The notes: generated by a model not told the origin, from the sequence alone. A DNA stretch of 24,485 nucleotides from an uncultured archaeon (GCA_964493715.1 CAZBPC010000048.1:1-24485); one strand, 5' to 3'. Shown: positions 2,471 to 22,314, numbered from the stretch's first letter. Numbers and translations: made by a program.

Positions 2471-2502
2471 TTCCTTTTTCGATGATTATGCCTAATAAAA
2501 TT

Positions 2503-2970: not shown

Positions 2971-3200
2971 TATTCAATTATCTCTTTAACCATTAGAGTC
3001 ATTAAGATTTACTTCATTCTATATCAAAATTTTATAGAATTTTTATATTAAATAGATAGGGTAGAACCTTATATTTTTTACATATTTTCAACGTAATAGT
3101 TAAATGAGATTTCCTCTGTAAAATCAATTTCTATTTTGATATTAGAACAATAGGAGGATAAAAATACACATGTAAAATTTCCAATAAATGGTATTAGGAG

Positions 3201-4377: not shown

Positions 4378-4671
4378 TTGATTTCACTAAAACTACGTTG
4401 GGAACCACCATTTAATGAGATAACTAATACTACAAATGAAATAATTAAGTTAGAAAATGAATTAACTTTGGAGGAATTATTTATCTTTTTTTACGAGAAA
4501 TATGGTCCAAAATTCAAGGATCTATTATGGGATAAGAAAATTAAAGGGGAATTTAGTTCTTTTCTTTCTATCATAATCAATGGGAGGAGTTATCGAGATG
4601 AGAACTTTTTAAAGACCCAAATAAAGGATGGAGATGATATTGCCTTTCTTTATCTCTATTTTGGTGGATAA
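4378..4671 (+). CDS. MoaD/ThiS/SAMP/Urm1-like ubiquitin-like protein
   Basis: Beta-grasp size and pattern, SIIINGR and IKDGDDIAFL motifs, C-terminal Gly-Gly. TTG start. Confidence 0.85.
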   Translation: MISLKLRWEPPFNEITNTTNEIIKLENELTLEELFIFFYEKYGPKFKDLLWDKKIKGEFSSFLSIIINGRSYRDENFLKTQIKDGDDIAFLYLYFGG

Positions 4672-4683
4672 TCTCTTCTAATT

Positions 4684-5721
4684 TCAAATTAGAACGTAGA
4701 TTAACCACATTCCAAAACCCGTTAAAATTGGGTTTAAAATATTATCCGAGATTCGATTTATAAACATGTCAATTAACATGAAGAGAACCATTGCTACGAA
4801 TGCCATTAATAAAATCTTAACAAAATTCAATGGCATCCATTGTTGATATAGACTCATTATCATAATTACGATTAAAAATGTTGAGGACGCACCGGCAATG
4901 AAACCCTCCTTAGTCTTTCCAGAATTTTTTCTTAATGGATGCTTTCCATACTTTTTTCCAATTATGCACGCCAAACCATCTGCTGCAGTTGTGATAAGTG
5001 CAACAGCTCCTAATATCGGGAAAGGTGCAAAAATGAATGGTACAAATGCTAAAACTAAAGGTGTGGATGCTATAAACGTATCTAATTCTTCTGGTCTCAT
5101 TGATAAATACCAATTTCTTGCCCAATTTGGTAGCATATATGATTTATTTAATCGAGCAAGATCAGCAATTTGGAACATTATAACAAATGCAAACCCAACG
5201 GTTATTATCCACCAATACGAAAAACTATAGTTATCTAATCCAACAGTATCTAAATATCCCATTGAATCAAGAATTGTACCAATTGTCCAAAAAACAAAGA
5301 TTACTGCGACAGTGAAGATGTGTAAGATTTTTCTTCCAAACTCACCTTTTAGATCATCAACCCAATTTCGAATTACTTGATCACGAAATATTTTATAATC
5401 CCTTTCTGCCATCAATTTAGGATCTTTTTTTGAAATTAATGCATTATATCCCAATACTACGATCCACACGATCAATTCTAAAACTAAAATTATTGAAGTT
5501 AAAGCCCATAGAGTATTTAAAGAACCCAAAGTCAATCTCGGAGAATTTGTTTGATACAGAAAGGGGAAGGATATGCCAGCATTCATAAATAGAATTACTA
5601 CTAACATTTCATTAATTAATATTTTCTTTTCTATTTTTTCCCTTTTATTAATCAAGACGTAGATGCAAGTTATTACTGAGAATCCAATAAAAATTAAGAT
5701 AGTAGGAATATAAGAGACCAT
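4684..5721 (-). CDS. CTP-dependent polyprenol/diacylglycerol kinase family membrane protein (dolichol kinase/phytol kinase/Dgk1-like)
   Basis: Many TM helices; RKILH, ADGLACIIGKKYG, KTKEG and SDNILNP motifs. Confidence 0.8.
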   Translation of the reverse strand: MVSYIPTILIFIGFSVITCIYVLINKREKIEKKILINEMLVVILFMNAGISFPFLYQTNSPRLTLGSLNTLWALTSIILVLELIVWIVVLGYNALISKKDPKLMAERDYKIFRDQVIRNWVDDLKGEFGRKILHIFTVAVIFVFWTIGTILDSMGYLDTVGLDNYSFSYWWIITVGFAFVIMFQIADLARLNKSYMLPNWARNWYLSMRPEELDTFIASTPLVLAFVPFIFAPFPILGAVALITTAADGLACIIGKKYGKHPLRKNSGKTKEGFIAGASSTFLIVIMIMSLYQQWMPLNFVKILLMAFVAMVLFMLIDMFINRISDNILNPILTGFGMWLIYVLI

Positions 5722-5812
5722 AAGAATATTTATGACAATTTTTTTTTAATTCTAATTTCTATATTTTTGTATTTATTTATTTATTTTGATATGTGGGAGA
5801 AAATTAAGGTTA

Positions 5813-6958
5813 TTACATCCAACTCAAAAATATTGTGAAATAATTAAAATTAAAGAAATATCGAATTAATACGTATATAAGCGCGCAACATATGGGAATC
5901 AATAAATTATCTGAAACGTTGACAGGTTTTTTTGTGAGGACATCAATGATAAAAAAGACTAATGTAAAAATTATTGACCATATCATTCCTGTAAAGAAAA
6001 AACAAATAATAAAACAGGTAATACATCCTGCTAGTGTCCCTTCCCATGATTTGTTACCATTAGTTTTAATTTTTCTTGTTCCATATCGTATACCGATTTG
6101 ACTCGTCATTAAATCGGCTATGGAACTCATTCCCAGGATAGCAAAATATACCATTGGAGGACAGAGGAATGAAGCAAACATTTGTCCCAAAGTAAAATAC
6201 ATATAAGCTCCATAACCTTCTTCTTCATAATCACAAAGATATATAGAACAAATAAAATTGAAAGGGAACGTAAAATATCTCGTTTTTCGGGTGAATTCCA
6301 TTGCAAGCATTAATAATGTAAAGGAATAGAAGAAAAAGAAGAGTAAGTAATAGAACCAACCAAGGGTAAATAACACATCACTCATGCTATTTGGTTCAGT
6401 AAAAATCCTTAGATATAAATAGAACATATTGTTCTCATAAGGAATCATACCTTGGGTAGAACCACTAAAATCTTTTACAACAATAACCCCTATATACCAT
6501 AAGAGAAATAATGCAATAAAGATTAATACATGAGCCAATTTTCTATAGATATCATATCTAATTTTACTCCTTTTAAGCAATCTTCTTGTCATGTTTAGTT
6601 TATATCTTGCAAAAACGTCAGATTTAAATCCAAACTTAATAATTACATACACTAATGACGAGATCAATACGATAATCGAAAATATTATAATTGGTAAGCC
6701 TAATGTCGTCAACCATAATGGTAAAATTGTCTGATGTAATGCTTTATCTTGGAACATTAAAATTAGGAACAGAAGAATGTGAGTTGTAACCATAAAAAGA
6801 GCTCCAAACCCTATGATATTTTCATACAAGACATTCTTATCCGAAAAATGCAAATAAAGGAATAAAATTAAGAAATAAGAAATTAAAAGGACGAAAAACC
6901 ATTCGAAGAAAATTACCATAGAATTGAAACCATTTACTATTTCGTTTAATATAATCAT
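5813..6958 (-). CDS. CTP-dependent polyprenol/diacylglycerol kinase family membrane protein (paralog)
   Basis: Many TM helices; RKLAH, ADLMTSQIGIRYG, KSWEG and SDNLLIP motifs. Confidence 0.8.
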   Translation of the reverse strand: MIILNEIVNGFNSMVIFFEWFFVLLISYFLILFLYLHFSDKNVLYENIIGFGALFMVTTHILLFLILMFQDKALHQTILPLWLTTLGLPIIIFSIIVLISSLVYVIIKFGFKSDVFARYKLNMTRRLLKRSKIRYDIYRKLAHVLIFIALFLLWYIGVIVVKDFSGSTQGMIPYENNMFYLYLRIFTEPNSMSDVLFTLGWFYYLLFFFFYSFTLLMLAMEFTRKTRYFTFPFNFICSIYLCDYEEEGYGAYMYFTLGQMFASFLCPPMVYFAILGMSSIADLMTSQIGIRYGTRKIKTNGNKSWEGTLAGCITCFIICFFFTGMIWSIIFTLVFFIIDVLTKKPVNVSDNLLIPICCALIYVLIRYFFNFNYFTIFLSWM

Positions 6959-7097
6959 TATTAATTATTTGAGGAATATTAAATCCTACGAAATTTGATT
7001 TCATCAATTTTAATGAACTCAATTGAAAAGAAAGATTTAGTATGAAATTCTTCTTTATTGTAAATATCTCAGTAGTAAATAGGTAAAGATATCATAA

Positions 7098-7697
7098 ATG
7101 AAAAAAATTATCTTAGCATCAAAATCACATGACAGGAAGGAGATCCTTGAAAGAGCAGGAATTTATTTCGAAATATTATCAATAAATGTAAAAGAAACTG
7201 AATATAAAAAGAAAATATCAGACCCCATACTCTTAGTGAAAGAATTAGCAAAAGCTAAAGTGATAGAAGCAAAAAAAATGATAAATAATCGTAAGAAAGA
7301 TATTATCATAATTTCCGCAGATACTCTTATTGAATTTCAAGGTCAGATAATAGGGAAGGCTAAAAGTGAGGAGGAGGCATATAAAATGATAAAATCTCTT
7401 AAAAATCAAACCCATAATCTTATAACAGGTTTAGCAATAACCGAAATTGGCAATGAGAAAATAGTTGTTGATTATGATTCTTCCAAGGTATGTTTTTCTG
7501 ATTTATCTGATGAAGAGATCCATTCTTACATCAAAACAGGAGAATGGAAAGGAAGGGCTGGGAGTTATTCAATAAGAGATAAAGCCAGTCTATTTATAAA
7601 GTATATACATGGCTCCTCGTCTAATGTTATAGGTTTACCAATGCATAAAGTATTTGAAATTCTAAAAAATGAATTTAGTCTAAATTTATTAAGATGA
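7098..7697 (+). CDS. maf: Maf-family nucleoside triphosphate pyrophosphatase
   Basis: IILASKS..RKEIL, AKAK, ISADT, IIGK, GRAGSY and NVIGLP motifs. Confidence 0.93.
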   Translation: MKKIILASKSHDRKEILERAGIYFEILSINVKETEYKKKISDPILLVKELAKAKVIEAKKMINNRKKDIIIISADTLIEFQGQIIGKAKSEEEAYKMIKSLKNQTHNLITGLAITEIGNEKIVVDYDSSKVCFSDLSDEEIHSYIKTGEWKGRAGSYSIRDKASLFIKYIHGSSSNVIGLPMHKVFEILKNEFSLNLLR

Positions 7698-7721
7698 TAA
7701 TTCTAATTTTTAAAGAAAATA

Positions 7722-7886
7722 CTAAGAAGTTTCTCTCCATCCTTTTAATCTTTCATAGAATTTTAAGACTCTTTCTAAACTAGAAACTATTTCTTCATAA
7801 TATTTCTTATCAGCATATTGATGAGTAGCTAACCTTTTTGCAATCTCTATATTATTCCGATATCTAATGATTTTATCCTCAATCAC
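7722..7886 (-). CDS. Small 54-aa helical hypothetical protein (below ORF-track cutoff)
   Basis: GTG 7886 to TAG 7722 gives MIEDKIIRYRNNIEIAKRLATHQYADKKYYEEIVSSLERVLKFYERLKGWRETS. It has an amphipathic helical-hairpin pattern and fills the gap convergent with maf. Confidence 0.6.
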   Translation of the reverse strand: MIEDKIIRYRNNIEIAKRLATHQYADKKYYEEIVSSLERVLKFYERLKGWRETS

Positions 7887-8110
7887 ATCCAACTGACAAA
7901 AGTCATTTTATTTAATAAGAAGAAATATCGTGATAATACATTTTGAAATAAAAGAAAAGCATTATTCACCCCTAATAAAGAGGTAAAATGGCATAATAAA
8001 TTGACAATTTAAAAAGCAAATCTATAAAAACCATTATTCAGTAAAGAACTTAATAATTAATTGATGTTCTAAATAAATAATATATAATCAATCAAAATAG
8101 GAGAAATAAA

Positions 8111-8440
8111 ATGAAAACGCATTATAAAAATTACGATATCATGAGGATTTTAACTGTCCTTGGAGGTATTATTGGATTGATCACGATTATCTTAGGGTTT
8201 TTAAATATCCCGAATTATAGCTATATTCATGTAAATATAGGTCTTGAGCCTGTACTTATTTTCATTATTGGTTTAGTAGTTTGTGTGATAACAATATTGG
8301 TAGGGATGAGGGAAATTCTTCCATTCCATTGGCTCACGTTACTCATTCTAGCAATACTTCTAGCAATTTTTAATGCAGGTGTGTGGGCAGTTGTATGTCT
8401 CGTTATCGCATTTTTAATTGGTCTCATTGAAGAATTTTAA
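8111..8440 (+). CDS. Small integral membrane hypothetical protein (3-4 TM)
   Basis: Very hydrophobic 109-aa ORF with an AGGAG SD-like sequence upstream. Confidence 0.7.
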   Translation: MKTHYKNYDIMRILTVLGGIIGLITIILGFLNIPNYSYIHVNIGLEPVLIFIIGLVVCVITILVGMREILPFHWLTLLILAILLAIFNAGVWAVVCLVIAFLIGLIEEF

Positions 8441-8470
8441 ACAAATATCAATTCTTTTTTTGTTTTCTTA

Positions 8471-9340
8471 TTAATTCTTTGCAGTTTTCAGAAAAAAGGA
8501 GACAATTTCTTCAGATAAATTAATATCGGTCACTTTTTGTAAAGCTGTAAATCCAGGGATCGAATTTACTTCTAATACCTGATATCCTTGTTCACTTTCT
8601 ACTATGTCAACTCCGGCGATTTGAGTGTGGGTCACTTCTGCAGCCCTAATAGCCAACTTTTTTAGATCATTCGTCAATTCAAGAGGTTGCATCTTTGCTC
8701 CAGCATGAATATTTGTTTTCCAATTATTACTTACTCGATACATTCCTGCAATCGCTTTGTTTCCTAAGACAAGAATTCTTATATCACGATTATGATGTTC
8801 AATAAATTCTTGAAGATAAAATACGTAATTCAATTGTCCTAAGGAATATATTACATTTTCAGCAAAAGCTTTATCATTTATTCTAATAATACCAATACCT
8901 TTTGAGCCAAAAAGTGGTTTTAATACGACATCGTTGTCTAATTCTTCAAAAGCTTTAAGAGCATCCTCCGTGCCTTCACATACAATAGTTTTAGGAGTAG
9001 GAACATTATTATATTCCAGAAAAAGTGAGGTTAGGAATTTATCGCTAGCAATTTCTAGCGATTCTCTTGAATTGATCAACTGAATACCAATCGCTTCAAT
9101 CGCACTTAAAATATCTAATCTAAAAAATATTTTTTGTGTTGCTGCCGCACCAAATCCTCTTACCAATGCAGCAGGAGGATTAAGATTCTCAAAAGATTTC
9201 TGAAATTTATTGATATTAATTTTGACAGATACTATTGATGGAATGAAATATTTAACACTATAATCTCGATTTTTAAATTCTTGTGATAAAATTTGTACTT
9301 CTGGATCTGATGGATTTGGAGTTATAATCATTGAGTGCAT
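8471..9340 (-). CDS. RimK-family ATP-grasp alpha-L-glutamate ligase (MptN/CofF-like)
   Basis: SDKFLT, VLKPLFGSKGIG, YLQEFI, RDIRILV, WKTNIHAG, AGVDI, EVNSIPGF. The N-terminal IFFRLDIL resembles MptN-type enzymes. Confidence 0.88.
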   Translation of the reverse strand: MHSMIITPNPSDPEVQILSQEFKNRDYSVKYFIPSIVSVKININKFQKSFENLNPPAALVRGFGAAATQKIFFRLDILSAIEAIGIQLINSRESLEIASDKFLTSLFLEYNNVPTPKTIVCEGTEDALKAFEELDNDVVLKPLFGSKGIGIIRINDKAFAENVIYSLGQLNYVFYLQEFIEHHNRDIRILVLGNKAIAGMYRVSNNWKTNIHAGAKMQPLELTNDLKKLAIRAAEVTHTQIAGVDIVESEQGYQVLEVNSIPGFTALQKVTDINLSEEIVSFFLKTAKN

Positions 9341-11540: not shown

Positions 11541-12074
11541 TTAATTAATTTTTGAATCCATTTCACTTTTCTTTAAATATAAGTTCAAAATCAATTGATT
11601 TAGGTCTAATTGATAACCAATAAGAGGTGTTAGTCTAATCTCGTTATTATCATAGTCTATTAGTAAATACCCTTTTTTGGACAATTCCTTTAAATCCTCT
11701 GAAAGGTTTTTCTTCTTTCTTAATTTTATGATTTCTTGAATTTGGGTGTATCCGCTATTTTTTAAACAACAGGCTAGGGTGCAAAATAAAGTGGCTGCTA
11801 AACTTGGGTGACCTTCAAATGGATTTGTTTTAAACATATCTGAAATTTCAGAATTAATTGATAAGTACCAATAAGAGTTTAGAGGATTAAAGTTTATATG
11901 ATATCCTAATGGTTTTATATAATTAGATAAATCTATGATTAATTTTTTTAGACATACATGTTTATTTTTCCCTTTAATGTTCAAATATCTGAGAAGCTCA
12001 TCTTCTGTTGCTCCAAATTCATAAAGACTCACTCGTCTGCCTAATAGATGCATTAATATTGATATCTCATTCAT
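11541..12074 (-). CDS. KITE-type SMC accessory subunit (ScpB/Nse1/Nse3-like tandem winged helix)
   Basis: Last gene of the SMC operon. Two WH-like halves: LSNYIKPLGYHI..WYL and LAATLF...EIIKLR...LKELSKKGYL...RLTP. Confidence 0.65.
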   Translation of the reverse strand: MNEISILMHLLGRRVSLYEFGATEDELLRYLNIKGKNKHVCLKKLIIDLSNYIKPLGYHINFNPLNSYWYLSINSEISDMFKTNPFEGHPSLAATLFCTLACCLKNSGYTQIQEIIKLRKKKNLSEDLKELSKKGYLLIDYDNNEIRLTPLIGYQLDLNQLILNLYLKKSEMDSKIN

Positions 12075-12083
12075 TTTTATATT

Positions 12084-12734
12084 TCACTCATATATTATAG
12101 TTGTTGTTTTTTGATACTTGAGTAATCCTATTTGGAGAAGATGTAGAATATAAACGAAAAATTCGTAGACTTCTATTTGATCTTGGATCCCATCAAAAAG
12201 CTCATCAAATTTACATGGTAATTTATTTTTTATGCTGCTATAAAAATCCATCATTTTTTCAGTGAACTTTTGTCGAGGAATCTCCAATAAGAATGAGCCT
12301 CCTATCTGTTCTTTTTTAACATGCTCAATCTTTTCTGTAAATGGGTGATCTTTACTGAAACGTTGGTTGCTCCAAAACATAAATTCAGGTGAAATTGATT
12401 CTAGATGAAATACTTTCCTCCAACAATTTCCTAAAATTTGTTCTATTTCAACATCACTAGGTTTAGATTTCAAGAATTGCATAAAAATTTCATCGTTATC
12501 AAGATGATTTAACAAATTCTTTAGTTCCTCAAATTTTTGAGAAAGTAAGATACAAGCTTTCTCATATGTTTGAGAATAGTTGAAGATATTGTAAATGTTA
12601 AGAGATTCTTTTAATTGTTTGAAAATTGGATTTAATTCCAGTTCTAGTAATGATATCTTACCAGTAACTACATCTTCTTTGATTGTATCAATATATCTTG
12701 TTAACTCTTGTGAAATATCCTCATATCCCATCAT
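12084..12734 (-). CDS. Kleisin (ScpA/Nse4-like)
   Basis: Starts 3 bp after smc. Helical N-domain plus a C-terminal WH motif FDELF...EVYEFFVYILHLLQIG resembling the ScpA 'F.eL...vv..FlalLeL...g' pattern. Confidence 0.7.
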   Translation of the reverse strand: MMGYEDISQELTRYIDTIKEDVVTGKISLLELELNPIFKQLKESLNIYNIFNYSQTYEKACILLSQKFEELKNLLNHLDNDEIFMQFLKSKPSDVEIEQILGNCWRKVFHLESISPEFMFWSNQRFSKDHPFTEKIEHVKKEQIGGSFLLEIPRQKFTEKMMDFYSSIKNKLPCKFDELFDGIQDQIEVYEFFVYILHLLQIGLLKYQKTTTIIYE

Positions 12735-12737
12735 ACT

Positions 12738-15700
12738 TCAATCCGTCATTATAATTTTTGGATGAAAAATTGTTGATAATTCCTTATTACCCACTCTTGC
12801 AACTCCGATTATTTTGTCTGCTAAGGAGAATAATGCATTCGAGGATTTAGGAAGAAACATCATTAATTGGATTGGTAAGTTCTCAAGAGTGGACTTTATC
12901 ATCTCATACGATATCTCTACGTTTTTGTCATCTAAAAACATTGCTGCTTCATCAAACAAGCATAAAGGAGATGGTTTAATTTCTTGTAATGAAAGCATTA
13001 GGCAAATTGAGACCATTGAGATCTGTCCTCCACTTAGTGCAGTGCATGACTTTAATTGATCTTTTGAAACTGCAGCCTTAATTATAATTCCCAAATCCTC
13101 AAAATTACCATTTAATTCCAACGAACAATATGACTTTATACCCGTAGTTTTAAATTTATTATTAATTTTTGATTCTAAATCACTCAACATTCCTTTAAAC
13201 TTAGTATAATAAGTGTTCTCCATTCCATCTTCTGTTTTAATTGCTGCTTTGATATCTTTCTCTAATGAATTCTGATTTGTATTAATTTCTTTTAAACTTG
13301 ATAATAAACGTTCTTTTTCAATAAGTAAAGATTTGTCCACATCAGCATACTTCATCAATTCTTTCTGGGTGTTATATATATCCTCTTTAATTTTCTCGAT
13401 AGGTCTAAGTTCAATTTGCTTTTCCAGTATCGAAGGTTGGATCTCTGAATTAATCCTCTCTATTTCTAACTTTTTTGCATTATATTCTTGATTTATCTCT
13501 TGTAATCGAAAATTTTCTTGACCCAAATTTAGTTTTAAACGATTTTGATCATTTTGTCTATCATCTATTTCTGTGCTATTCCTTCTTTTATCCTCATTTA
13601 ATTGTTGCTCTTCGGAATTGCTAATAATTATTTGTTCTTTTATGGATTCTAAATTCTTGAACATATTAAAAGAATTTTTATCTGATTTCTCAAAATCCTC
13701 ATTCCTTTTAGAATATCTTTCTTTAAGATCTGAGATGAAACTATTAATGGATAGTGCTTTAGATTTCAAATCATTTAGATTGTTGTTTTTTTCTTCTTGA
13801 ATTATATCTAACTTATTCAATTTTTCATTATACTCCTTAAGAATGAGAGGAATCTCTTTAATTCTATCATTCCATTCAATAAACTCTGGTTCTATTTGAG
13901 ATTCTAAAATTTTAATTTGCTTACTTATTTTTTTAATATTTTCCGCAAATATAGATTTTTGATGTTCACATTCATATATCATCTCATAAAATCGATTTCT
14001 TTTCTGATTTAATCGTTCTTGTTGATTAAAATTATAAATTAGATCATTGAAAAGCTCCTTTTTTTCATATAAGTCTCGCTGGATTTTTTCTCGACTTAAT
14101 AGAAAGGATTTTTTATTTGAAATATATTTATTTACGGTTTCAATTTCCTCACTAATAACATCTATCTGTTCCTTTAAAGTGATTGTACTTAAAAATCCTT
14201 TTAATCTTTTTATGAAGGGAGTTTCATAAGTGTATTTATAAGAAACGATTTGTTCTCCCTTGAGAGTTACGCATTTACCTTTAAAACCTGAATTCTCATA
14301 TATACTCTTACTATTACTATATTCCTGAATGACAATACAATTACCTATTTTTGAATAAATTACTTTCTTAATATCTAAATCATCATCTGCAATATTTATT
14401 AGATCTGCAAGATACCCTATAACCCCAGGAGCAATGAATTTTCTTAAAGGAGTAATGACTGCCTCTTTTGATAGGTAAATATTGCAATAAGCATTTAATC
14501 TCTTCTTTAATTGTTTTAGAGTGTTTAGAGTCTCCCAATTATCAGCTACAAAACTAAATAATAATCTCTCTCCTAAAACAGATTCGATAGCATAACTAAG
14601 ATCATCATCATATTTTAAAAATTCAATAATGGGTCCTTTAACTTTTAAATTGTGCTTCTCAATTTCTTCTTTTAATAAAATTATGTTCATTGGAAGAATT
14701 ATTTTACGTTTTTCTAATGATTCTTTCAAAGTACTAAATTTCTTCAGTAACTTTGATTTTTCATATTCATTTTTTTTCAAAATTGACTCAATTTCGAAAA
14801 TTTCCTGAGATAATTTATTAAGATCTTTGTCCAATTTTCTAATTAAATCTTGAGAAGGGTTTTCCACGAACCAGGGGTTACTTTGAAATTTATTTTCTAT
14901 GTCTTGGAGACTTAGGAGAATATCATTTATGTCATGATTAAGATCGTCAATTTCTTTATCTTTTATTTCAATTTTTCTAATATAATCCTTTTGTTCATCT
15001 AAAAGCTTTTCATGCTCTTGGAAAAATATTTCATTTTCTTTAATTTTTACTGTTAAATCATTTTGTTCCGCTATTAATTGGTTTATGTTTTTCGTGATCA
15101 GATTTTTTTCTTTTTTAAGTTTCGTAATATCGTCCTGAATGTTCTTTTCTTGTTGTGTATAACTTTTAGAATCGTGCTCATTTTTCAGAATCTCTTTTTT
15201 TAAAGAGTCCAATTCTGATTTCCTTGTGAGCTTTTCACTCTTCCATATTTCTATTTTTTTTAATATGTCTTTCTTTTTATAATTCAATTCTCCAATTAGT
15301 TTCAAATTATCGTTTAATTGAAATTCAAGTTGTAGTATTATATTTCGTTTCTGCTCAATAATCTTTTTATTTAAATCAACTTTATTATTTAATTCCTTAA
15401 CTCGTGAGTTTATTTCATTTAACTTAGTCTCCAAATTCCCAATGATTTTTAATAAATTTTCCCGATTAGCCCATAAGAGCTCATCATCATATTGTTTTTT
15501 TAAGGTCAATAATGAGTTTTTAATCTCTAATCGTTTTAATTTAGGAAATAATGAATCCAAATTGAAATTTAGCGCATTCTTTCTGCTTTTGAGTGCAAGA
15601 AAATCATTATTCAAGCCCATTAATTTTTGTTTTTGAGCTAAAATTTCCAATCTTAATCCTTTTAGCCCAATTCCTTCTTCCAAGAAAGAGCATAACTCTT

Positions 15701-16163
15701 TTGGTTTTAAATTTTTAATAATATCGATTTTCCCTTGGCTAACAAATGCGAAATGATTATCCGGATTAATATTCAATTGAGATATGAATTCTTGAATATC
15801 TATAGCGGAAATTTTTTTAAATGAATCATCACCATCTTTTTGAATTTCGAAATATGGAGATTTACCTCTAATTACAATCCTTCGAAGTTTGATTAATTCA
15901 TCTTTAAAATGTAAATGGATCTCTACCATAGCATGATTTTGGCCATTATGAATGAAATCATACCATTTTTTATACCGATCATCTCTTTCATTACTTCCCA
16001 AAACAAATTTGATAGCCTGGAATATAGAAGTCTTACCGGACCAATTTGGACCAATTATTAGAATTAAGCGTGGATCAACTTCTTTGGTATCTCCTGAAAA
16101 TTCTACTTCATCCTTTTGAAAAGAGAGGAAATTCTCTAAGATAATTTTCTTAATATAAACCAT
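12738..16163 (-). CDS. smc: SMC-family ATPase, Smc5/6-like
   Basis: LENFLSF, Walker A GPNWSGKTS, Q-loop FVSQG, long coiled coils flanking a hinge (GPII...AIESVLG...VTLKGE), signature LSGGQ, Walker B LFDEAAMFLD. Confidence 0.92.
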   Translation of the reverse strand: MVYIKKIILENFLSFQKDEVEFSGDTKEVDPRLILIIGPNWSGKTSIFQAIKFVLGSNERDDRYKKWYDFIHNGQNHAMVEIHLHFKDELIKLRRIVIRGKSPYFEIQKDGDDSFKKISAIDIQEFISQLNINPDNHFAFVSQGKIDIIKNLKPKELCSFLEEGIGLKGLRLEILAQKQKLMGLNNDFLALKSRKNALNFNLDSLFPKLKRLEIKNSLLTLKKQYDDELLWANRENLLKIIGNLETKLNEINSRVKELNNKVDLNKKIIEQKRNIILQLEFQLNDNLKLIGELNYKKKDILKKIEIWKSEKLTRKSELDSLKKEILKNEHDSKSYTQQEKNIQDDITKLKKEKNLITKNINQLIAEQNDLTVKIKENEIFFQEHEKLLDEQKDYIRKIEIKDKEIDDLNHDINDILLSLQDIENKFQSNPWFVENPSQDLIRKLDKDLNKLSQEIFEIESILKKNEYEKSKLLKKFSTLKESLEKRKIILPMNIILLKEEIEKHNLKVKGPIIEFLKYDDDLSYAIESVLGERLLFSFVADNWETLNTLKQLKKRLNAYCNIYLSKEAVITPLRKFIAPGVIGYLADLINIADDDLDIKKVIYSKIGNCIVIQEYSNSKSIYENSGFKGKCVTLKGEQIVSYKYTYETPFIKRLKGFLSTITLKEQIDVISEEIETVNKYISNKKSFLLSREKIQRDLYEKKELFNDLIYNFNQQERLNQKRNRFYEMIYECEHQKSIFAENIKKISKQIKILESQIEPEFIEWNDRIKEIPLILKEYNEKLNKLDIIQEEKNNNLNDLKSKALSINSFISDLKERYSKRNEDFEKSDKNSFNMFKNLESIKEQIIISNSEEQQLNEDKRRNSTEIDDRQNDQNRLKLNLGQENFRLQEINQEYNAKKLEIERINSEIQPSILEKQIELRPIEKIKEDIYNTQKELMKYADVDKSLLIEKERLLSSLKEINTNQNSLEKDIKAAIKTEDGMENTYYTKFKGMLSDLESKINNKFKTTGIKSYCSLELNGNFEDLGIIIKAAVSKDQLKSCTALSGGQISMVSICLMLSLQEIKPSPLCLFDEAAMFLDDKNVEISYEMIKSTLENLPIQLMMFLPKSSNALFSLADKIIGVARVGNKELSTIFHPKIIMTD

Positions 16164-16220
16164 ATTTTGTCTCTTTTCTAGTGCTTGCGCCTGTATTACC
16201 GTTATTGATCCCCTCTTAAT

Positions 16221-17423
16221 TCATTTTCCAAAGGCTTGCTTAATTTGTTCAATTTTTTTTTTTGCTTTCTCTAAATTTATTTGAGCTTTTTGAGGATTAT
16301 CATTTAAAATGAACGGATACATCGATAATAATTTTAAATCGTTTTCTTCGAGAATTTCTTTTTTATTTAATTTATCTAATATGATCAATAGTTCAGTATA
16401 TCTTTCGGAAGCAGCATTTTCGTAAAATTGATTTAACATAAAATCTGAGATATTTTGATTTTGAATATTAGAAATGATGTTTTTCTGTAATTCTTCGGGA
16501 TCTTTTATCTCATATTTTTGGTTTTTCAAGCCATTTTCAGGATTTATTTGATTATTAATGGAAAAAGAGGGAATATATTCTCCGGATTCGATTAAATCTT
16601 TCAATAGAGGAGTAATTTCATTTGAAATGTCATTAAGTTCTGAGTTTAAATAATGTTTGAAAATTGCTATCTTGATCAAATGAGTTATGTCTCTAATTTC
16701 CCATTTTTTTGTTAAATCTACCATAGTTTTGATGTCAAAAACAATTTTTGGGTACTTTTCAGAAATATTAGAGAAAATTATTTCTCGATCTTCCTGATTT
16801 AATCGATGAATTTTAATAAATATATCAAAAAATTGAAATACTTCTTGAGAATTTTCATTAATTTCATCAACATTATAATTTATCCAAAACAGTAAAGCTT
16901 GTTGATCAATAAAACTATAATCAGAAGATTTTTTTAAGAAATAGTTCAGAAAAAACTTTAAAAAGCTTTTACTTTGTGAATCAAATTCTATTAGTTGCTC
17001 TACTAGCAATATTCGTTTTATTTTATAGACTTCATCGTATTTCTCTGAAACTTCCCCTGTGGCTTCATTGCTTCTCAAGATCTCTTCTATTATTAAATTA
17101 AAATTGGTAAAAAAATCTTGTGGGGTTTCCAAGAGCTTATCAATGTTAAATTGAACAAGATTTAGATTATAGTTTGCAGAGATAAATTTAAAAAAATCGA
17201 GTATATCCGTACCTTTATTGATATGCAACAATAAAGCCCCTTTTGGATGAGAATACTGCTTTATTAACTCGTCATCATCTTTTACTAGTAAAACTCTTAA
17301 ATAATTAACAATCTCGTTATATTTTTCCCTAAAATATATTTGATCTCTATTGATGTTAATTTCAGATGAGGAAATAATTTTATAGTATTTCGAAAAGCTC
17401 ATTTCCTCTCGTGCATCGTTCAT
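16221..17423 (-). CDS. Degenerate, probably inactive, AAA+ ATPase-like protein
   Basis: EIVNYL...PKGALLLHINKGTD at the Walker A position, ILLVEQ at Walker B, and FDIFIKIHRLNQEDREIIF...DIKTMVDLTKKWEIRDI resembling the classical AAA lid region. Confidence 0.65.
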   Translation of the reverse strand: MNDAREEMSFSKYYKIISSSEININRDQIYFREKYNEIVNYLRVLLVKDDDELIKQYSHPKGALLLHINKGTDILDFFKFISANYNLNLVQFNIDKLLETPQDFFTNFNLIIEEILRSNEATGEVSEKYDEVYKIKRILLVEQLIEFDSQSKSFLKFFLNYFLKKSSDYSFIDQQALLFWINYNVDEINENSQEVFQFFDIFIKIHRLNQEDREIIFSNISEKYPKIVFDIKTMVDLTKKWEIRDITHLIKIAIFKHYLNSELNDISNEITPLLKDLIESGEYIPSFSINNQINPENGLKNQKYEIKDPEELQKNIISNIQNQNISDFMLNQFYENAASERYTELLIILDKLNKKEILEENDLKLLSMYPFILNDNPQKAQINLEKAKKKIEQIKQAFGK

Positions 17424-17609: not shown

Positions 17610-17625
17610 ATCAAATGATCTTGAT
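17610..17625. promoter_or_regulatory. Possible ArsR-type box ATCAA-N6-TTGAT
   Basis: Perfect 5-6-5 palindrome at the arsR 3' end, with the same geometry as the 18106 palindrome. Confidence 0.3.
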
Positions 17626-18026
17626 CATCTCAGGATGGAATCATTAAGAGTTTCTAATTGAATGTTTAGATTTTCTTTTATAAGATGATAATAAGTAAAA
17701 TTTCCCTTTTTATAACCCTCAATTAAACCAGAACTAACGAGTTTTCTTATATGATGAGAAATTGTTGATTGAGACTTATCTAAAACAGCTTCTAGTTCAC
17801 ATACACATCTATCTCTATTTCTTAATAAATGGAGTATTATGAGCCGTTCTTTTGAAGCTAAAGCCATAGTAAAAAGTGGTAATTTATCAAAATTTTTATT
17901 ATTATCTAAATCTAATTTTATTTTCCGTAATTCTTCAAAATAAGAATTTGTTTCATCGCATTCCTTACAAGAACATAGCATGCTTTTAATTTCCTTAACT
18001 CTTTGAGGTTTAATATTAATCACCAA
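17625..18026 (-). CDS. arsR: ArsR/SmtB-family metalloregulator
   Basis: ALASKERLIILHLL, CVCEL metal-binding box, HTH SQSTISHHIRKL...GLI, wing KKGNFTYY. Extra N-terminal CSCKEC. Divergent from acr3. Confidence 0.92.
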   Translation of the reverse strand: MVINIKPQRVKEIKSMLCSCKECDETNSYFEELRKIKLDLDNNKNFDKLPLFTMALASKERLIILHLLRNRDRCVCELEAVLDKSQSTISHHIRKLVSSGLIEGYKKGNFTYYHLIKENLNIQLETLNDSILR

Positions 18027-18105
18027 TTATTATCAACATAATCACAATTATTTAAATACATCGATAAATATAAATGTAAGGTATTTCTAACTTCATATAC
18101 ACCCA

Positions 18106-18123
18106 AATCGATATCTTTCGATT
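18106..18123. promoter_or_regulatory. Putative ArsR operator AATCGA-N6-TCGATT
   Basis: Perfect 6-6-6 inverted repeat between divergent arsR and acr3. A weaker copy, TACATCGA-N6-TAAATGTA, lies at 18057-18078. Confidence 0.6.
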
Positions 18124-18160
18124 AACTTTAAAAACGATCAATAATTTAAAAAGTTTGATA

Positions 18161-19219
18161 ATGAGTGATGACGAAAAAAAAATTGGTTATTTTGAAAAAC
18201 TGTTGCCACTTTGGGTGGCAATATGTATAGTAATTGGGATTGCGTTATCTCAATTGGTACCTCAGATAAGTTTGGCAATAGATTCACTTAAAATTGGACA
18301 AATCTCTATTCCAATAGGGATTTGCCTATTTCTAATGATGTACCCTGCAATGTTAAATCTGAAAGGATCTGAATTAAAAAAATTGGGTAAAAATCCTAAA
18401 CCAATTATTCTGACTCTAATTTCAAATTGGTTAGTTGCTCCATTTGTGGGTTTAGCCATGGTAAAACTTTTTTTACAGGGAAATGAACAATTGTCAGTAG
18501 CAGTCATATTATTATCAAGCTCACCATGCACTGCTATGGTACTTGTATGGGGTTGGATGGCCAAAGGGAATCAAGAACAAAATGTATTAAATACGAGTTT
18601 AAATACCGTAACAATTATTTTCTTATATGTAGGCATGGTTTCATTGCTTACAGGATTGCAGAATATACCAATTGATGTGATGCTGTTAATAATATCACTG
18701 ATCATTTTTATTGGGATTCCCTTATTGTTAGGAATCATTACAAAGAAAGTCATTGTATTATCTAAAGGAGATGAATGGTTTAACAATACTTATCGTCCCT
18801 TTGTTGGGAAAATTTCGATTGGTGCATTATTAGTTACACTAATCGTGCTTTTTTCATTAAATGGAAATGTTTTGATTCATAACCCCGATTTGTTATTATT
18901 GGTTTCAATTCCCTTACTCCTAGGATTTGTCATTGTTGTAGGATATAATGTATTCATTACTAAAATCTTTAAAATGAGATATAAGGAAGCTATAATCACG
19001 GTAATTATCGGATCTTCTAGTCATTTTGAGATTGCAATTGCAACCGCTATCGCGATGTATGGAATAGGCTCCATAGCGGCTTTAGGTACAACAATGGGGC
19101 TGTTTTGGGAAGTGCCTGTAATGCTTTCGATTGTTTATTTAGGGAGGTATTTAGAAAAGCGCGGATTTTGGAAATCAGAAGAAAAGAATTCAAATTTATT
19201 GAATTTTGAGGTACAGTAA
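18161..19219 (+). CDS. acr3: Acr3 arsenite efflux transporter
   Basis: PIGICLFLMMYP, NWLVAP, SPCTAMVLVW, SSHFEIAIATA, WEVPVML; about 10 TM helices. ATG 18161 (alternative TTG 18155). Confidence 0.93.
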   Translation: MSDDEKKIGYFEKLLPLWVAICIVIGIALSQLVPQISLAIDSLKIGQISIPIGICLFLMMYPAMLNLKGSELKKLGKNPKPIILTLISNWLVAPFVGLAMVKLFLQGNEQLSVAVILLSSSPCTAMVLVWGWMAKGNQEQNVLNTSLNTVTIIFLYVGMVSLLTGLQNIPIDVMLLIISLIIFIGIPLLLGIITKKVIVLSKGDEWFNNTYRPFVGKISIGALLVTLIVLFSLNGNVLIHNPDLLLLVSIPLLLGFVIVVGYNVFITKIFKMRYKEAIITVIIGSSSHFEIAIATAIAMYGIGSIAALGTTMGLFWEVPVMLSIVYLGRYLEKRGFWKSEEKNSNLLNFEVQ

Positions 19220-19220
19220 A

Positions 19221-20879
19221 GTGGCAGTCACATATATGCGAAAATTGGAAGAAGAACCTGAAACATATGATTCGAATTTCACCACATTAACCAATGGGAT
19301 AAATCTTGAAGTTCATAATTGGGTACTAAATCACCTCAAAGAAAGTAAAACGATTTTAGAAGTAGGATGCGGAACTGGTATTCTCGCTTCGAAAATGGTC
19401 AAAAATGGTAGAAGTGTGGTTGCTATTGATAAAAATTTTCAGATGATTAATCAAGCAATGATGAATTACCCTTCTAATATCGATGGAACGCTTCTCTATC
19501 AAATAGGATCATTTAAAGATTTACCCGTTCCACCAAATTCTCAAGATGTTATTGTTAGTACTTTCATGTTATCTGAACTTCGACCATTTGAACAGCAAAT
19601 TTTCTTACGTAATTCTTGGTCGGTACTAAAACCAGAAGGTAGATTATTGATAGGTGCTGAGTTCGTTCCATCTGGTTTATGGAAATTAGGTTTTAAATTG
19701 AAAAGATGGAGATTTAAAAAAAAATTAAGAAGACTTCGTTTAGATAATACTTATCTCGTTAAATGGTTCATGAAATATCTAACACCAATTGGATTCAAGA
19801 TAATTGAGAGTAAAAAATGGAAACATGGATCCATTCAAGCATTGGAATTAATAAAAACCAATGAAGATAATCTCGATGAGCCAGGGTATTACATTCCATC
19901 CTCAAAAAAATTTAGTGGGATTGGATCTCAATTCAGAATTTTTAGATGTACTCTAACTGGTCAAGCCGATAGAGTTCCTATTGAGCCGGGGATTTATCGA
20001 TCGGGAAACCCAACGAAAAATTCTCCAATTATAGTCACTTCAAATTATGATTTTACATACATCAAGGTGATGAGAAATTTGCGCCATATCGATGCCTGGG
20101 TTCTATGTGTGGATAGTAATGGCATTAATGTGTGGTGTGCGGCGAGGGGTAATGATTTTGGCAATGAACAAATCCTAGAAGCGGTGGAAGCGACAGGAAT
20201 CCAAAATTTTACAGAACAAAAAACTTTAATTCTCCCTCAACTATCCGCAGGTGGAGTTTCAATACCACAATTACCAAAAAAATCTGAAAAATTTCCTTTT
20301 AAAATTAAATTTGGACCAGTATGGTCTAAACACCTACCACAATACCTTAAAGAAAAACCTAATAAAAAACCAGATTACATGAAATTAGCTAAATTCAGTT
20401 TATCTCATAGAATGAGAGCATGGGTCACGCATACAACATTTTTATTAAGAAAGATATTTTTACTGCCAATCATTGGGTTCTTCATTATTTTTTTATTAAG
20501 CCTACCATGGATAAACAAGCTTACTTGGGTTGCGGAATTAATATCATGGATCATTATATCTAATGCTTTAATAGCAATCTTATTTCCTCTCTCAAGTTTC
20601 ACGAGGAGTTTCATAAAGAAAGGAATGATTTTTGGGTTTCTCACATCATTAGTTCTTGGAGGAATATCATGGTTATTGCATGGCTCGCTCATATTCATTT
20701 TATTGAATGTGATTTTATTCTTTTGGATCGCATTTTTTTCTACGATGTCGTTTAGCGGATATACCATGGCAACCAGTCCAAGAGAAATTCAGGAAGAATA
20801 TTCAAGTTTTAAGAAAATAAATAAATTTTTACTAATTATAGGTATCATTTTATCAATAATTGGAATTATAATCTATTAA
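19221..20879 (+). CDS. Class I SAM methyltransferase fused to an HgcA-like corrinoid domain and C-terminal TM helices
   Basis: N-terminal ILEVGCGTG, VVAIDKN, DVIVSTF, LKPEGRL. Middle IEPGIYRSGNP..SPIIVTSNY, DSNGINVWCAARG, LILPQLSAGGV, FGPV. C-terminal 4-5 TM helices with FSGYT. Likely GTG start at 19221 after GAGGT; the ORF track gives TTG 19206. Confidence 0.88.
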   Translation: MAVTYMRKLEEEPETYDSNFTTLTNGINLEVHNWVLNHLKESKTILEVGCGTGILASKMVKNGRSVVAIDKNFQMINQAMMNYPSNIDGTLLYQIGSFKDLPVPPNSQDVIVSTFMLSELRPFEQQIFLRNSWSVLKPEGRLLIGAEFVPSGLWKLGFKLKRWRFKKKLRRLRLDNTYLVKWFMKYLTPIGFKIIESKKWKHGSIQALELIKTNEDNLDEPGYYIPSSKKFSGIGSQFRIFRCTLTGQADRVPIEPGIYRSGNPTKNSPIIVTSNYDFTYIKVMRNLRHIDAWVLCVDSNGINVWCAARGNDFGNEQILEAVEATGIQNFTEQKTLILPQLSAGGVSIPQLPKKSEKFPFKIKFGPVWSKHLPQYLKEKPNKKPDYMKLAKFSLSHRMRAWVTHTTFLLRKIFLLPIIGFFIIFLLSLPWINKLTWVAELISWIIISNALIAILFPLSSFTRSFIKKGMIFGFLTSLVLGGISWLLHGSLIFILLNVILFFWIAFFSTMSFSGYTMATSPREIQEEYSSFKKINKFLLIIGIILSIIGIIIY

Positions 20880-20940
20880 AAAAACCATAAAAAAATAAAA
20901 ATAAATAATAAATAAAGATAATAAAATAAAGGTGAAATTA

Positions 20941-21261
20941 ATGACAGAATTAAAAAGTGATTCCTGTTGCAGTCCATCAACAAGCCTAACACAATTACCT
21001 AACATCAGAATACTTATTGATCAAAAATTATGTACTGGTTGTGGACTATGTGGAGAAGTATGCCCATTTGGACTCCCTCAACCCATAGAAAATGGGAAAT
21101 ATATAATTTCAGATGTCAATTTATGTACCGAGTGTAGTGCTTGTAAAAGAAATTGCCCAGTTCAAGCCATATCAATGTATGAACAAAAAGGTTGTGGGTG
21201 TTTATGGGATGCAAGGCAGCGAATTAAGAACAAGGGTTCAACGAACTCTTGCTGTAATTAA
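20941..21261 (+). CDS. HgcB-like 2x[4Fe-4S] ferredoxin
   Basis: CTGCGLCGEVCP and CTECSACKRNCP, then GCGC and a C-terminal SCCN; directly downstream of the HgcA-like gene. ATG 20941 (alternative GTG 20932). Confidence 0.85.
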   Translation: MTELKSDSCCSPSTSLTQLPNIRILIDQKLCTGCGLCGEVCPFGLPQPIENGKYIISDVNLCTECSACKRNCPVQAISMYEQKGCGCLWDARQRIKNKGSTNSCCN

Positions 21262-21290
21262 AATAACAAATAAAAGTGAGGATTTAAAAA

Positions 21291-21707
21291 ATGAATGAAA
21301 AAAGCATAAATGATGAAATAAAGGTAGTTAAGGATTCTTGTGGATGTGGGTGTACATGTTCTGAAGCTGAAGTAGAAGAATCAAAGGATGAGAAAGTTTC
21401 AAAATTAGAAGAATTAGAGAATTCAAATGAGAAATTCAATGATTCAAGTAAGTTATATATCGATATTTACGTACCCTTGGATGCGTGCGCATGTGAATGG
21501 TCTCAATTCATGAACTTAATGTTCTCAGCAATTACACCATATATTAAATATATCAAACATGAAACAAAATCACTAAACACTGAGGAAGCCCGTCGGATGA
21601 ACTTGTTCACAAAATGTGCAATCGTGGACGACAAGAAAAAATATACGACATCTGCTGCCTTAAAAAGGGATCTACCAAGACTTTTAGAAGAAAAGGGTTT
21701 AATGTAA
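21291..21707 (+). CDS. Cys-rich protein with possible thioredoxin/ArsD-like fold
   Basis: N-terminal CGCGCTC, acidic linker, then strand-loop IDIYVPLDACACEW and a beta/alpha pattern. GAGGA upstream. Confidence 0.65.
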   Translation: MNEKSINDEIKVVKDSCGCGCTCSEAEVEESKDEKVSKLEELENSNEKFNDSSKLYIDIYVPLDACACEWSQFMNLMFSAITPYIKYIKHETKSLNTEEARRMNLFTKCAIVDDKKKYTTSAALKRDLPRLLEEKGLM

Positions 21708-21719
21708 ATAAAATCTAAG

Positions 21720-22085
21720 TTGTTGGATATGAAAACGATTAAATTTGATATAAGTATTCCAATACAAGGGCTACAAAAGGGGAAAAAATTTACTGTCATT
21801 GTGGATGATGATGCAACGATAATACAAGCATTAGCCATGGTGGATAAACAAGATCAAGAGAATCCAAATGAATCCATTTTTCCGATATATGATGGATACA
21901 TACATAATTATCTTCAAATGTTCGTGAATTTAGAGGATGGATATATCTATAATGACGTTGGAATCTATGCTTATGGTCCCGATGAAAATGAGATCATGCG
22001 AAAATTTAACCCAATTCGAGAAAACATAGATTTTAATCTATATCCCGATAGTTTAATTCAATTACAACCAGATGTTGGGTGCTGA
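21720..22085 (+). CDS. Hypothetical protein, possible beta-grasp/Ubl-like fold ending in Gly-Cys
   Basis: KFTVIVDDDATIIQAL...NLYPDSLIQLQPDVGC* follows the MoaD/ThiS layout but ends GC, not GG. Start TTG 21720 or ATG 21729. Confidence 0.6.
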   Translation: MLDMKTIKFDISIPIQGLQKGKKFTVIVDDDATIIQALAMVDKQDQENPNESIFPIYDGYIHNYLQMFVNLEDGYIYNDVGIYAYGPDENEIMRKFNPIRENIDFNLYPDSLIQLQPDVGC

Positions 22086-22314
22086 TGAGAAAAAGTGAAA
22101 AATAGGCTCAACATCGGTAAATTGAAGTCCATTATCCTTGAAAAATATGGAAAAAACAGTAAAGAATTTTCTCACTATTTTACTCGGAAATCTAAATAAA
22201 TTTTGGATGAAATCTTTCAGAAAAAGCGAGTGAAAGGTTGACATCTGGATGGTCTCCAGAAATTATTTTTTATATAATATGAAAATTAAAAATTTGGTTT
22301 AATTTTATGCAATC

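Follow-up and report, generated by a model that had tools for sequence, protein, structure and literature searches.

The 24,485-nucleotide (nt) stretch GCA_964493715.1 CAZBPC010000048.1:1-24485, referred to as the window throughout, comes from a Lokiarchaeon/Promethearchaeote (Promethearchaeota) and carries six genes at positions 17625-22085. A minus-strand arsR stands divergent from a plus-strand row comprising acr3, a fusion of a methyltransferase (MTase) with an HgcA-like corrinoid protein (MT-HgcA), an HgcB-like ferredoxin, and two small cysteine-bearing proteins, orf138 and orf121. Judged from its sequence, the row is best read as encoding an As(III)-inducible, corrinoid-dependent methyl transfer, loaded from S-adenosylmethionine (SAM), to a thiol-bound soft metal(loid) beside Acr3 export, a reading held tentatively and a little short of an even chance. 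The original prediction, made from the DNA alone, had described a co-directional five-gene row divergent from arsR, with a palindrome in between, in a probable Asgard archaeon; all six genes are confirmed where it placed them, and the host assignment holds. Every named homolog of the fusion protein, among the best 120 listed and the close matches in GTDB loci, is Asgard, and the host genome has an estimated completeness of 100%, 160 contigs, and a GC content of 30%. The parts that had been proposed, namely a methyl loader, a corrinoid carrier, a reductant, two cysteine-bearing accessories, and a pump under ArsR, are borne out by families and motifs.

The fusion gene occupies an open frame at 19206-20879 (+), with GTG 19221 as its likely start and a product of 552 residues. 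The N-terminal class I SAM methyltransferase domain (19221-19880) matches the CpaM family NF043040 with 128.6 bits over model positions 3-213 of 216, below the cut-off of 180; CpaM leads all other MTase families by over 80 bits, the runner-up scoring 46 bits. Residues G44, G46, D65, D104, and E142, which form the GxGxG and acidic motifs, are invariant across 24 fused homologs. Against ArsM (NF008823 and relatives) the domain reaches 40.4 bits with a cut-off of 263, and its single cysteine lies in the GCGTG motif, an ArsM-like cysteine triad being absent. Because no cysteine exists beyond GCGTG, this domain is unlikely to bind As(III) as ArsM does. Its simplest role would be loading the SAM methyl group onto the corrinoid.

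The corrinoid-binding domain (19980-20450) scores 175.7 bits with HgcA (NF040863; 177.3 in the genome search) and 180.1 bits with HgcAB-like (NF043039), missing the respective cut-offs of 275 and 285, and matches PF03599 (Pfam CdhD) at 3.3e-14. The CX2CX2CX3CP motif is absent from the fusion protein, the ferredoxin being a separate gene. The cap helix reads GINVWCAARGN, its cysteine being residue 301 in 547-residue numbering (nt 20136-20138), and N298, W300, and C301 are invariant in the 24 fused homologs. Among solved structures the nearest is that of the large subunit of the corrinoid iron-sulfur protein in its C-terminal domain (CFeSP; 2h9a, E 2.4e-8), and no HgcA structure was found by a sequence search with this domain. 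The C-terminal membrane domain (20451-20879) contains five Kyte-Doolittle hydrophobic segments at residues 412-430, 437-455, 468-486, 488-506, and 533-551 (552-residue numbering), at least four transmembrane (TM) segments being expected of an HgcA.

The filter for HgcA used in the field, as described in the accessible parts of Capo 2022 and PMC10349881, is the cap-helix motif N(V/I)WCA(A/G)GK with close variants, comprising six high-stringency motifs; NVWCAARG of the window is none of these six. The cap helix was surveyed in the 150 top-ranking cluster representatives of a search across 1.84 billion proteins, each being classified if it had at least 300 residues and a cap-helix match. The canonical form N[VI]WC[ASG][AG]GK, located about 80-200 residues from the N-terminus, occurs in 79 representatives, all carrying G-K where the window protein has R-G. 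Where the motif lies near residue 300, with an N-terminal MTase present, it reads AARG, AAGGGHFT, and similar.

A careful tree of the corrinoid domain, built on 51 rows hand-picked to represent every group with CdhE as outgroup, places the window protein outside the canonical HgcA clade (support 100/99) and within an Asgard MT-fused clade (98/93) composed of Lokiarchaeal (100/98) and Thorarchaeotal (100/100) sequences. A third clade (99/98), comprising HgcAB-like fusions, triple fusions, and Chloroflexota MT-fusions, holds the second paralog of the same genome. The backbone between the three clades is unresolved in this tree, with which a quick tree of 99 rows agrees. By motif and phylogeny the fusion is an HgcA paralog. 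Since the protein is a paralog and not HgcA, an arsenic-induced Hg methylase becomes the weaker of the two options originally put forward. Lin et al. 2023 report Asgard sequences in a fused-HgcAB subtree, with the first 327 alignment columns removed, and the available part of that paper does not mention an Asgard MT-HgcA clade.

The HgcB-like ferredoxin (20932/20941-21261, +; 106 residues) matches Fer4 families and reaches 52.9 bits with NF040864, below its cut-off of 99. It contains two CX2CX2CX3CP motifs for two [4Fe-4S] clusters, an N-terminal CC, GCGC following the second of these motifs, and SCCN at the C-terminus. A tail of the form '...GCGCLW[DN].R...' with at least two further cysteines at or near the C-terminus, mostly CC, is present in 31 of 31 complete Lokiarchaeal HgcB-like open reading frames (ORFs), counted over 32 loci with one ORF at a contig end excluded. 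In canonical HgcB, the tails printed have 'GVGC...' and end for the most part in CC or another cysteine pair. The tail cysteines of HgcB matter for Hg methylation. The cysteine tail is absent from the printed fused forms (contig C53 and loci L064 and L105) and from the separate ferredoxin of L071.

Both small proteins downstream combine conserved cysteines with an Asgard-restricted distribution. In orf138 (21291-21707, +), a cysteine-rich, variable N-terminal tail (CGCGCTC here) precedes a core whose CxC (C66, C68) is invariant and whose C109 is near-invariant in the alignment; among its 96 homologs, all that are named belong to Asgard archaea. In orf121 (21720/21729-22085, +), D118, G120, and C121 are invariant in 36 sequences, forming a D-x-G-C at the extreme C-terminus; every named one of its 106 homologs is likewise Asgard. 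Family scans give no match for orf138 (Pfam, NCBIfam) or orf121, alignment members of both yield only scattered sub-threshold Pfam matches, and profile searches against PDB sequences return nothing or chance saposin matches at E 0.7. The orf121 homolog P0166 in the ESM Atlas has a poor model (pLDDT 0.38) with no usable structural match. An ArsD-like identity of orf138 is unsupported, PF06953 finding nothing in the genome, as is a thioredoxin-like one, with only single members touching thioredoxin families at E ~0.05. For orf121, a MoaD/ThiS-like beta-grasp with GC in place of GG was considered and dropped, since comparing its profile with ThiS-family ORFs, three of which this genome encodes, gave a probability of 1.4%. 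A metallochaperone role is conceivable for orf138 from its cysteine motifs. At locus L050 its homolog lies away from hgcA, in an arsR-orf138-DGC-domain row 4 kb downstream of MT-HgcA, with more DGC-domain genes and a GCV_H fusion in between. Taken as signs, the cap-helix cysteine, the HgcB-type cysteine tail, and the invariant cysteine motifs of orf138 and orf121 point to a thiophilic substrate.

ArsR (17625-18026, -), an ArsR/SmtB metalloregulator, exceeds the cut-off of 55 for NF033788 with 71.5 bits and matches PF01022 at 1.1e-15. It carries CVC at residues 74-76 and, in addition, an N-terminal C18/C20/C23 cluster. NF007528 aligns residues 50-115 to model positions 8-73, so that C74 and C76 fall at positions 32 and 34; the accessible part of PMC13236881 lists Cys32 and Cys34 as two of the three As(III) ligands of EcArsR. 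Position 37 is Glu, versus the EcArsR-type cysteines at 32, 34, and 37. This CVCE is found in 24 of the 27 best-matching (tblastn) arsR-like ORFs beside Asgard MT-HgcA, Thorarchaeota included, and is absent from the ArsR-like genes adjoining six canonical hgcA loci.

The divergent arsR-acr3 spacer (18027-18154, 128 nt), a putative promoter/operator, contains ATCGAT palindromes at 18060-18065 and 18107-18112 and AATCGA-N6-TCGATT at 18106-18123, these inverted repeats being accompanied by A/T-rich TATA-like tracts. The boxes ATCGATAAATATAAAT and CAAATCGATA are kept in the homologous spacers of eight loci (L013, L018-L022, L024, L025), whose ArsR proteins are 50-77% identical to that of the window. 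ATCGAT(A) boxes occupy the same spacer in 8 of the 16 related loci printed, a recurrence by which they exceed AT-rich chance. Both boxes are good operator and promoter candidates, and ArsR would be the protein that reads them.

Acr3 (18155/18161-19219, +; ATG 18161), a probable ACR3-family arsenite efflux permease, matches TIGR00832 with 270 bits (E 2.9e-80, model positions 2-325 of 327), just under the cut-off of 282.8, and PF01758 at 3e-37, the bile acid symporter family following at 33.7 bits; hydropathy gives about 10 hydrophobic segments. It is the sole ACR3 match of a profile search of the genome. None of ArsM, ArsC, ArsD, and ArsA reaches its cut-off genome-wide, the best ArsM match scoring 50.2 bits. 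The absence of arsC and arsM from the window, claimed earlier, is upheld by a scan of 18 ORFs that did not extend to those at 8111-8440, 11541-12074, and 12084-12734 (each at least 100 residues). By these family scans, this is the sole recognisable arsenic-resistance locus of the Lokiarchaeon. The gene set, acr3 with no arsC, agrees with a cold-seep survey whose accessible part reports acr3 present and arsC not found in Asgard lineages.

The five plus-strand genes are tightly packed, with internal spacers of 1, 61 (or 52, counting from GTG 20932), 29, and 21 (12) nt, of which the last three bear out the tight later gaps described at the outset. The acr3 stop is TAA at 19217-19219, and the in-frame GTG 19221 yields MAVTYMRKLEEEP. 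This N-terminus (MAVTYM...) agrees with the pattern M[SA]x[IV][YF]M with which many fused homologs begin, 552 residues is the length of most close orthologs, and GAGGT lies 8 nt upstream, for which reasons GTG 19221 is the likeliest start, 1 nt after acr3, and the 'next start 19221' of the original prediction is probably right. Shine-Dalgarno-like GAGGT, GGTGA, and GAGGA precede internal cistrons, GGTGA and GAGGA standing before the two that follow the fusion. Runs of at least five T are found in none of the four internal spacers, the first intergenic one lying at 22266, 3' of orf121; in an AT-rich genome, this absence lends weak support to a single transcript.

A partnership of MTase, corrinoid, and ferredoxin parts is found elsewhere too. 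On contig C53 of the same genome (L041), a CpaM gene at 6944-7603, scoring 247.8 bits and thus above the cut-off of 180, is directly followed by a 366-residue HgcAB-like fusion at 7628-8728, with the cap helix GINVWCGACGDD and no cysteine tail. Immediately downstream, in convergent orientation (8760-9056, -), lies the gene for a 98-residue protein bearing a CAKCC motif, and a 130-residue ORF upstream (5605-5997, -) resembles a helix-turn-helix regulator by eye only. The architecture survey, covering the 150 listed representatives and the GTDB loci, shows a separate upstream CpaM gene at L084, L105, L112, and L115; MT+HgcA fusions in Promethearchaeota, Thorarchaeota, Chloroflexota, Poribacteria, and others; and MT+HgcA+ferredoxin triple fusions in, for example, Desulfobacteraceae, Hydrothermarchaeota, and Myxococcota. 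Such fusions supply a Rosetta-stone argument that the three parts act together. At L091, from a Bacteroidaceae metagenome-assembled genome, a canonical-motif hgcA has an MTase-like stretch directly upstream (7001-7288; 29% identical to residues 40-139), the only such neighbour among 40 loci matching the HgcA domain only (tblastn). One Promethearchaeota genome has an extra MTase-like ORF between acr3 and MT-HgcA (L053:7001-7396; 34% identical to fusion residues 12-139).

Conservation of the gene row was assessed by tblastn with the window proteins at E <= 1e-3, a search in which divergent ArsR and Acr3 of distant phyla could be missed. Across 20 loci from the taxonomic order to which the window belongs, the HgcB-like gene is present in 20, arsR in 17 (excluding a weak 62-residue match in L026), acr3 in 16, orf121 in 13, and orf138 in 12, orf138 and orf121 being found only in the genus of the window. 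Of 159 genomes of the class, 109 have an MT-HgcA ortholog (E <= 1e-60) and 141 have acr3. In 43 of the 109, spread over 8 of 17 genera and two families, no more than 150 nt separate acr3 from MT-HgcA, and in 49 the distance is at most 5 kb. These distances cover the acr3 matches listed, all but six, in genomes with an MT-HgcA match; related genomes are non-independent samples, and contig breaks lower these counts. By genus, acr3 is found within 5 kb in 29 of 32 genomes with an ortholog in the window's genus (g1), 4/4 in g9, 3/3 in g21, 4/6 in g23, 2/5 in g15, 1/1 in g17, 1/2 in g8, and 5/45 in the sister genus g22, and the remaining nine genera show no acr3 adjacency.

Beyond these 20 loci, 12 further Promethearchaeota loci have acr3 in four cases and an ArsR-family gene in six. 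The eight acr3-less loci among them include a divergent CVCE ArsR only at L042 and L045, the ArsR of L050 lacking CVCE and lying 4 kb away. Among the 40 loci that match the HgcA-like domain only, an ArsR-like gene occurs in eight and the row arsR-acr3-hgcA-hgcB in two, both of Bacillota (L088, L099). The acr3 link therefore recurs in two unrelated HgcA clades, which argues for a functional reason. The hgcA of L099 (Peptococcaceae; 6191-6856), a member of the canonical clade in an arsR-acr3-hgcA row, has the cap helix NVWCAAGA, with Lys replaced by Ala; its sister in the tree, from Desulfitobacterium, has the usual motif. Two genomes that share a genus (G016:C78, which is L025/L047 with locus coordinates 2309-3362 and 6854-6922, and G137:C46) have about 3.6 kb between acr3 and MT-HgcA; L025/L047 carries a 23-residue copy of the acr3 3' end directly before MT-HgcA, and this junction looks as if something had been inserted. 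Taken together, the neighbourhoods suggest a core of MT-HgcA and the HgcB-like ferredoxin with a winged-helix regulator gene (ArsR-family, or MarR in L048) nearby in most loci examined, four of the 12 Promethearchaeota loci having been examined by tblastn only. To this core, acr3 appears to have been joined in part of the Lokiarchaeia, and orf138 and orf121 mainly in the window's genus, and also at a few loci beyond the 20, L043 and L053.

In the favoured reading, As(III) or another thiophilic metal(loid) would release ArsR, and Acr3 would export As(III). The fused CpaM-type domain would transfer a methyl group from SAM to the Co(I) corrinoid, which the HgcA-like domain would bind Cys-on, a loading step resembled by the SAM-dependent reductive remethylation of cobalamin in MetH. 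The HgcB-like ferredoxin would give electrons, its C-terminal cysteine pair presenting the thiol-bound soft metal(loid) to the methyl-corrinoid, possibly helped by orf138 and orf121. The methyl group would then pass to the metal(loid), most likely As(III) or Sb(III), yielding a methylated, possibly volatile product. The locus is proposed to work like HgcAB with a built-in methyl loader, but as a paralog of HgcA. Methylcobalamin methylates As(III) with thiols present, as stated in the accessible part of a review, which makes methylation of As(III) or Sb(III) chemically plausible. A bolder version, possible at best, would make the module an ArsM-independent, cobalamin-dependent arsenite/antimonite methyltransferase, orf138 and orf121 new thiol metallochaperones, and metalloid detoxification the native role of the wider HgcAB superfamily.

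Several observations weigh against the favoured reading. Methylation of As(III) yields methylarsenite, MAs(III), which is more toxic, and the operon has Acr3 in place of any exporter known for MAs(III). None of the equivalog cut-offs is reached. CobS was not found in the genome, so that the corrinoid would need import. Searches with the fusion give weak matches in frames of ~480-510 residues in most relatives and none in the genome of the window, the three fetched beginning like CdhE/AcsC; this genome may lack both the corrinoid protein of the acetyl-CoA pathway and the late steps of cobalamin synthesis, or the assembly may just not include them. The ND132 study, in its accessible part, reports an arsenic link and no arsenic methylation by HgcAB, and the tested non-canonical HgcA relatives, fused HgcAB such as that of P. 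furiosus, are described in the accessible literature as showing no Hg methylation. The neighbourhoods add further weight on this side. The gene acr3 is not adjacent to MT-HgcA in 60 of the 109 ortholog genomes, including 40 of the 45 of g22; the Thorarchaeota loci have a co-directional CVCE ArsR in two of three and acr3 in none; and neither acr3 nor arsR was found by tblastn at any of 25 non-Asgard MT-fused or CpaM+HgcAB-like loci. The acr3-less Lokiarchaeal locus L048 has a MarR-family gene upstream instead, and the acr3-less L050 is flanked by MTHFR genes, its MT-HgcA lying between MTHFR and an MTHFR C-terminal domain gene (L050:4881-6509 and 12702-13783). As acr3 is absent from many lineages, arsenic efflux does not appear integral to the core reaction. 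The synteny with acr3 and arsR that had been expected to be conserved is therefore partial, holding in the 43 class genomes with acr3 within 150 nt and in 8 of 17 genera, and failing in most of g22, in the Thorarchaeota for acr3, and at the 25 non-Asgard MT-type loci. The ArsR-family linkage is wider than that of acr3, extending to 17/20 and 6/12 Lokiarchaeal and 2/3 Thorarchaeotal loci, without being universal.

These same neighbourhoods favour the alternative that MT-HgcA and the HgcB-like ferredoxin serve an arsenic-unrelated function, in one-carbon metabolism or on a small thiol or halomethane, with acr3 a lineage-specific neighbour. The HgcAB-like proteins of the sister clade, which lack the HgcB cysteine tail (C53; tails of L064, L071, and L105), speak for it as well, as does a 2026 preprint whose available text reports halomethane dechlorination by HgcAB. 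The Lokiarchaeal HgcB-like proteins, however, keep their cysteine tail with or without adjacent acr3 (L044-L052), and two extra cysteine proteins are hard to explain for a non-metal substrate. Eight genera from two families retain direct coupling to acr3, with spacers of 20-125 nt, and such coupling is seen again beside canonical hgcAB in Bacillota. Also listed against this alternative are the CVCE ArsR genes, present at few acr3-less Lokiarchaeal loci and at two of three in Thorarchaeota. On balance, an arsenic-unrelated function is possible and somewhat less likely than the favoured reading.

A genuine Hg methylase with a fused methyl donor domain, ArsR-controlled as in Pseudodesulfovibrio mercurii, is improbable. 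It would account for the cap-helix cysteine, the five TM segments, the adjacent ferredoxin with its C-terminal cysteine pair, and the ArsR-family regulator; the accessible literature documents ArsR control of hgcAB for ND132 and names Asgardarchaeota among putative methylators in marine sediments. Set against it are the cap helix, outside the six high-stringency motifs and with R-G replacing the G-K of 79/79 canonical representatives, the score of 175.7 bits where 275 is called for, the position outside the canonical clade, and the negative Hg results of the tested non-canonical relatives. The reverse direction, either corrinoid-dependent demethylation of methylated arsenicals or thiol-metalloid binding and sequestration with no methyl transfer, is very improbable: anaerobic arsenic demethylation has no assigned enzyme, its mechanisms being less resolved according to the accessible part of a 2026 preprint, and corrinoid proteins can accept methyl groups and many cysteine motifs are present, but an intact SAM MTase domain fused to the corrinoid domain points to methyl donation, and family scans reveal no tetrahydrofolate (THF)- or coenzyme M-type methyltransferase acceptor module in the operon.

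The rest of the window contains unrelated housekeeping genes, with no ars gene in family scans. An SMC-like protein of 1141 residues and a 400-residue protein with no family match adjoin arsR (12738-17423, -); both stay next to the operon in all of the genus, so that genus synteny reaches beyond the ars module. A small ThiS/MoaD-family protein ending in GG (4417-4668, +; PF02597, 24.2 bits) is unrelated to the operon.

Hg methylation is regarded as co-metabolic, and its arsenic link has been proposed and not explained. Two questions meet at this locus, namely why the HgcAB family exists and whether an enzyme underlies corrinoid-dependent arsenic methylation in anoxic habitats. The five genes form a compact test object: the methyl donor domain is already part of the corrinoid protein, the pump and an ArsR of the Cys type come with it, and the genome has no ArsM that could confound the outcome. 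On the bolder version, an enzyme would be assigned to the methylcobalamin-dependent arsenic methylation reported for anaerobes. Should the module methylate As or Sb, surveys of arsenic-cycling genes would be overlooking a pathway in abundant sediment archaea, surveys based on hgcA would have to assign 'hgcA-like' matches a function of their own, and Hg methylation might have arisen as a by-product of handling metalloids. Should it not, the recurrent acr3/arsR linkage still wants explanation.

Part of this ground is already known. McDaniel et al. 2020, in the part available, describe hgcAB-ars gene neighbourhoods, Gionfriddo 2022 likewise reports a link between hgcAB and arsenic, and NCBIfam names both CpaM ('corrinoid protein-associated methyltransferase') and HgcAB-like, making the idea less new than the original prediction assumed. 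A literature search covering sources other than subscription journals and supplements found no description of an MTase-HgcA fusion or of an Asgard acr3-hgcA-like operon; these sequences may already figure in trees or tables supplementing Lin 2023, McDaniel 2020, and the cold-seep study. Within that search, four elements are apparently new: the clade of Asgard MT-HgcA proteins, the direct link between it and the sole acr3 of the genome under an ArsR of the Cys type, the HgcB cysteine tail kept in this clade, and the two cysteine proteins confined to Asgard archaea.

Among known systems, HgcA/HgcB of ND132 shares with the window a CFeSP-homologous corrinoid domain whose cap helix bears the NVWC cysteine, five TM segments towards the C-terminus, and a neighbouring gene for a 2x[4Fe-4S] ferredoxin that has a cysteine after the second cluster and a cysteine pair at its end; both often adjoin an ArsR-family regulator and sometimes acr3. 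The window differs in its NVWCAARG, its separate clade, and scores of 175.7 and 52.9 under cut-offs of 275 and 99, and in having a fused N-terminal SAM MTase, GCGC for GVGC in the ferredoxin tail, and two extra cysteine proteins. The CpaM plus HgcAB-like arrangement likewise brings together a CpaM-type MTase, an HgcA-like corrinoid/TM protein of non-canonical type, and a module with two [4Fe-4S] clusters, whereas the window fuses the MTase, not the ferredoxin, to HgcA and keeps the cysteine tail on its separate ferredoxin. The two fall into different clades (98/93 for the window, 99/98 for the other), the window misses both cut-offs, and linkage to acr3/arsR is 0/25 in non-Asgard loci of that kind.

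ArsM/AS3MT resembles the locus as a class I SAM MTase fold in an ars operon with the same proposed outcome, a methylated arsenical. The likeness is confined to a generic MTase core match of ~40 bits against cut-offs of 263-575, and the window MTase has no As(III)-binding cysteines, so that the methyl group would pass via a corrinoid. CFeSP (AcsC/CdhE), the closest solved homolog, shares the logic of reductant, methyl donor, and Co(I), which is found in MetH as well. Unlike the fusion protein, CFeSP is soluble, has its own [4Fe-4S] domain and no Cys ligand, and takes its methyl group from methyl-THF, and the activation domain of MetH is unrelated in sequence. The Bacillota loci L088 (Desulfitobacterium sp.) and L099 (Peptococcaceae) have a canonical-clade hgcA with no MTase domain and an arsR on the same strand as the row, and tblastn finds neither orf138 nor orf121 there, yet they present the same order of regulator, ACR3, corrinoid protein, and ferredoxin as the Lokiarchaeal operon.

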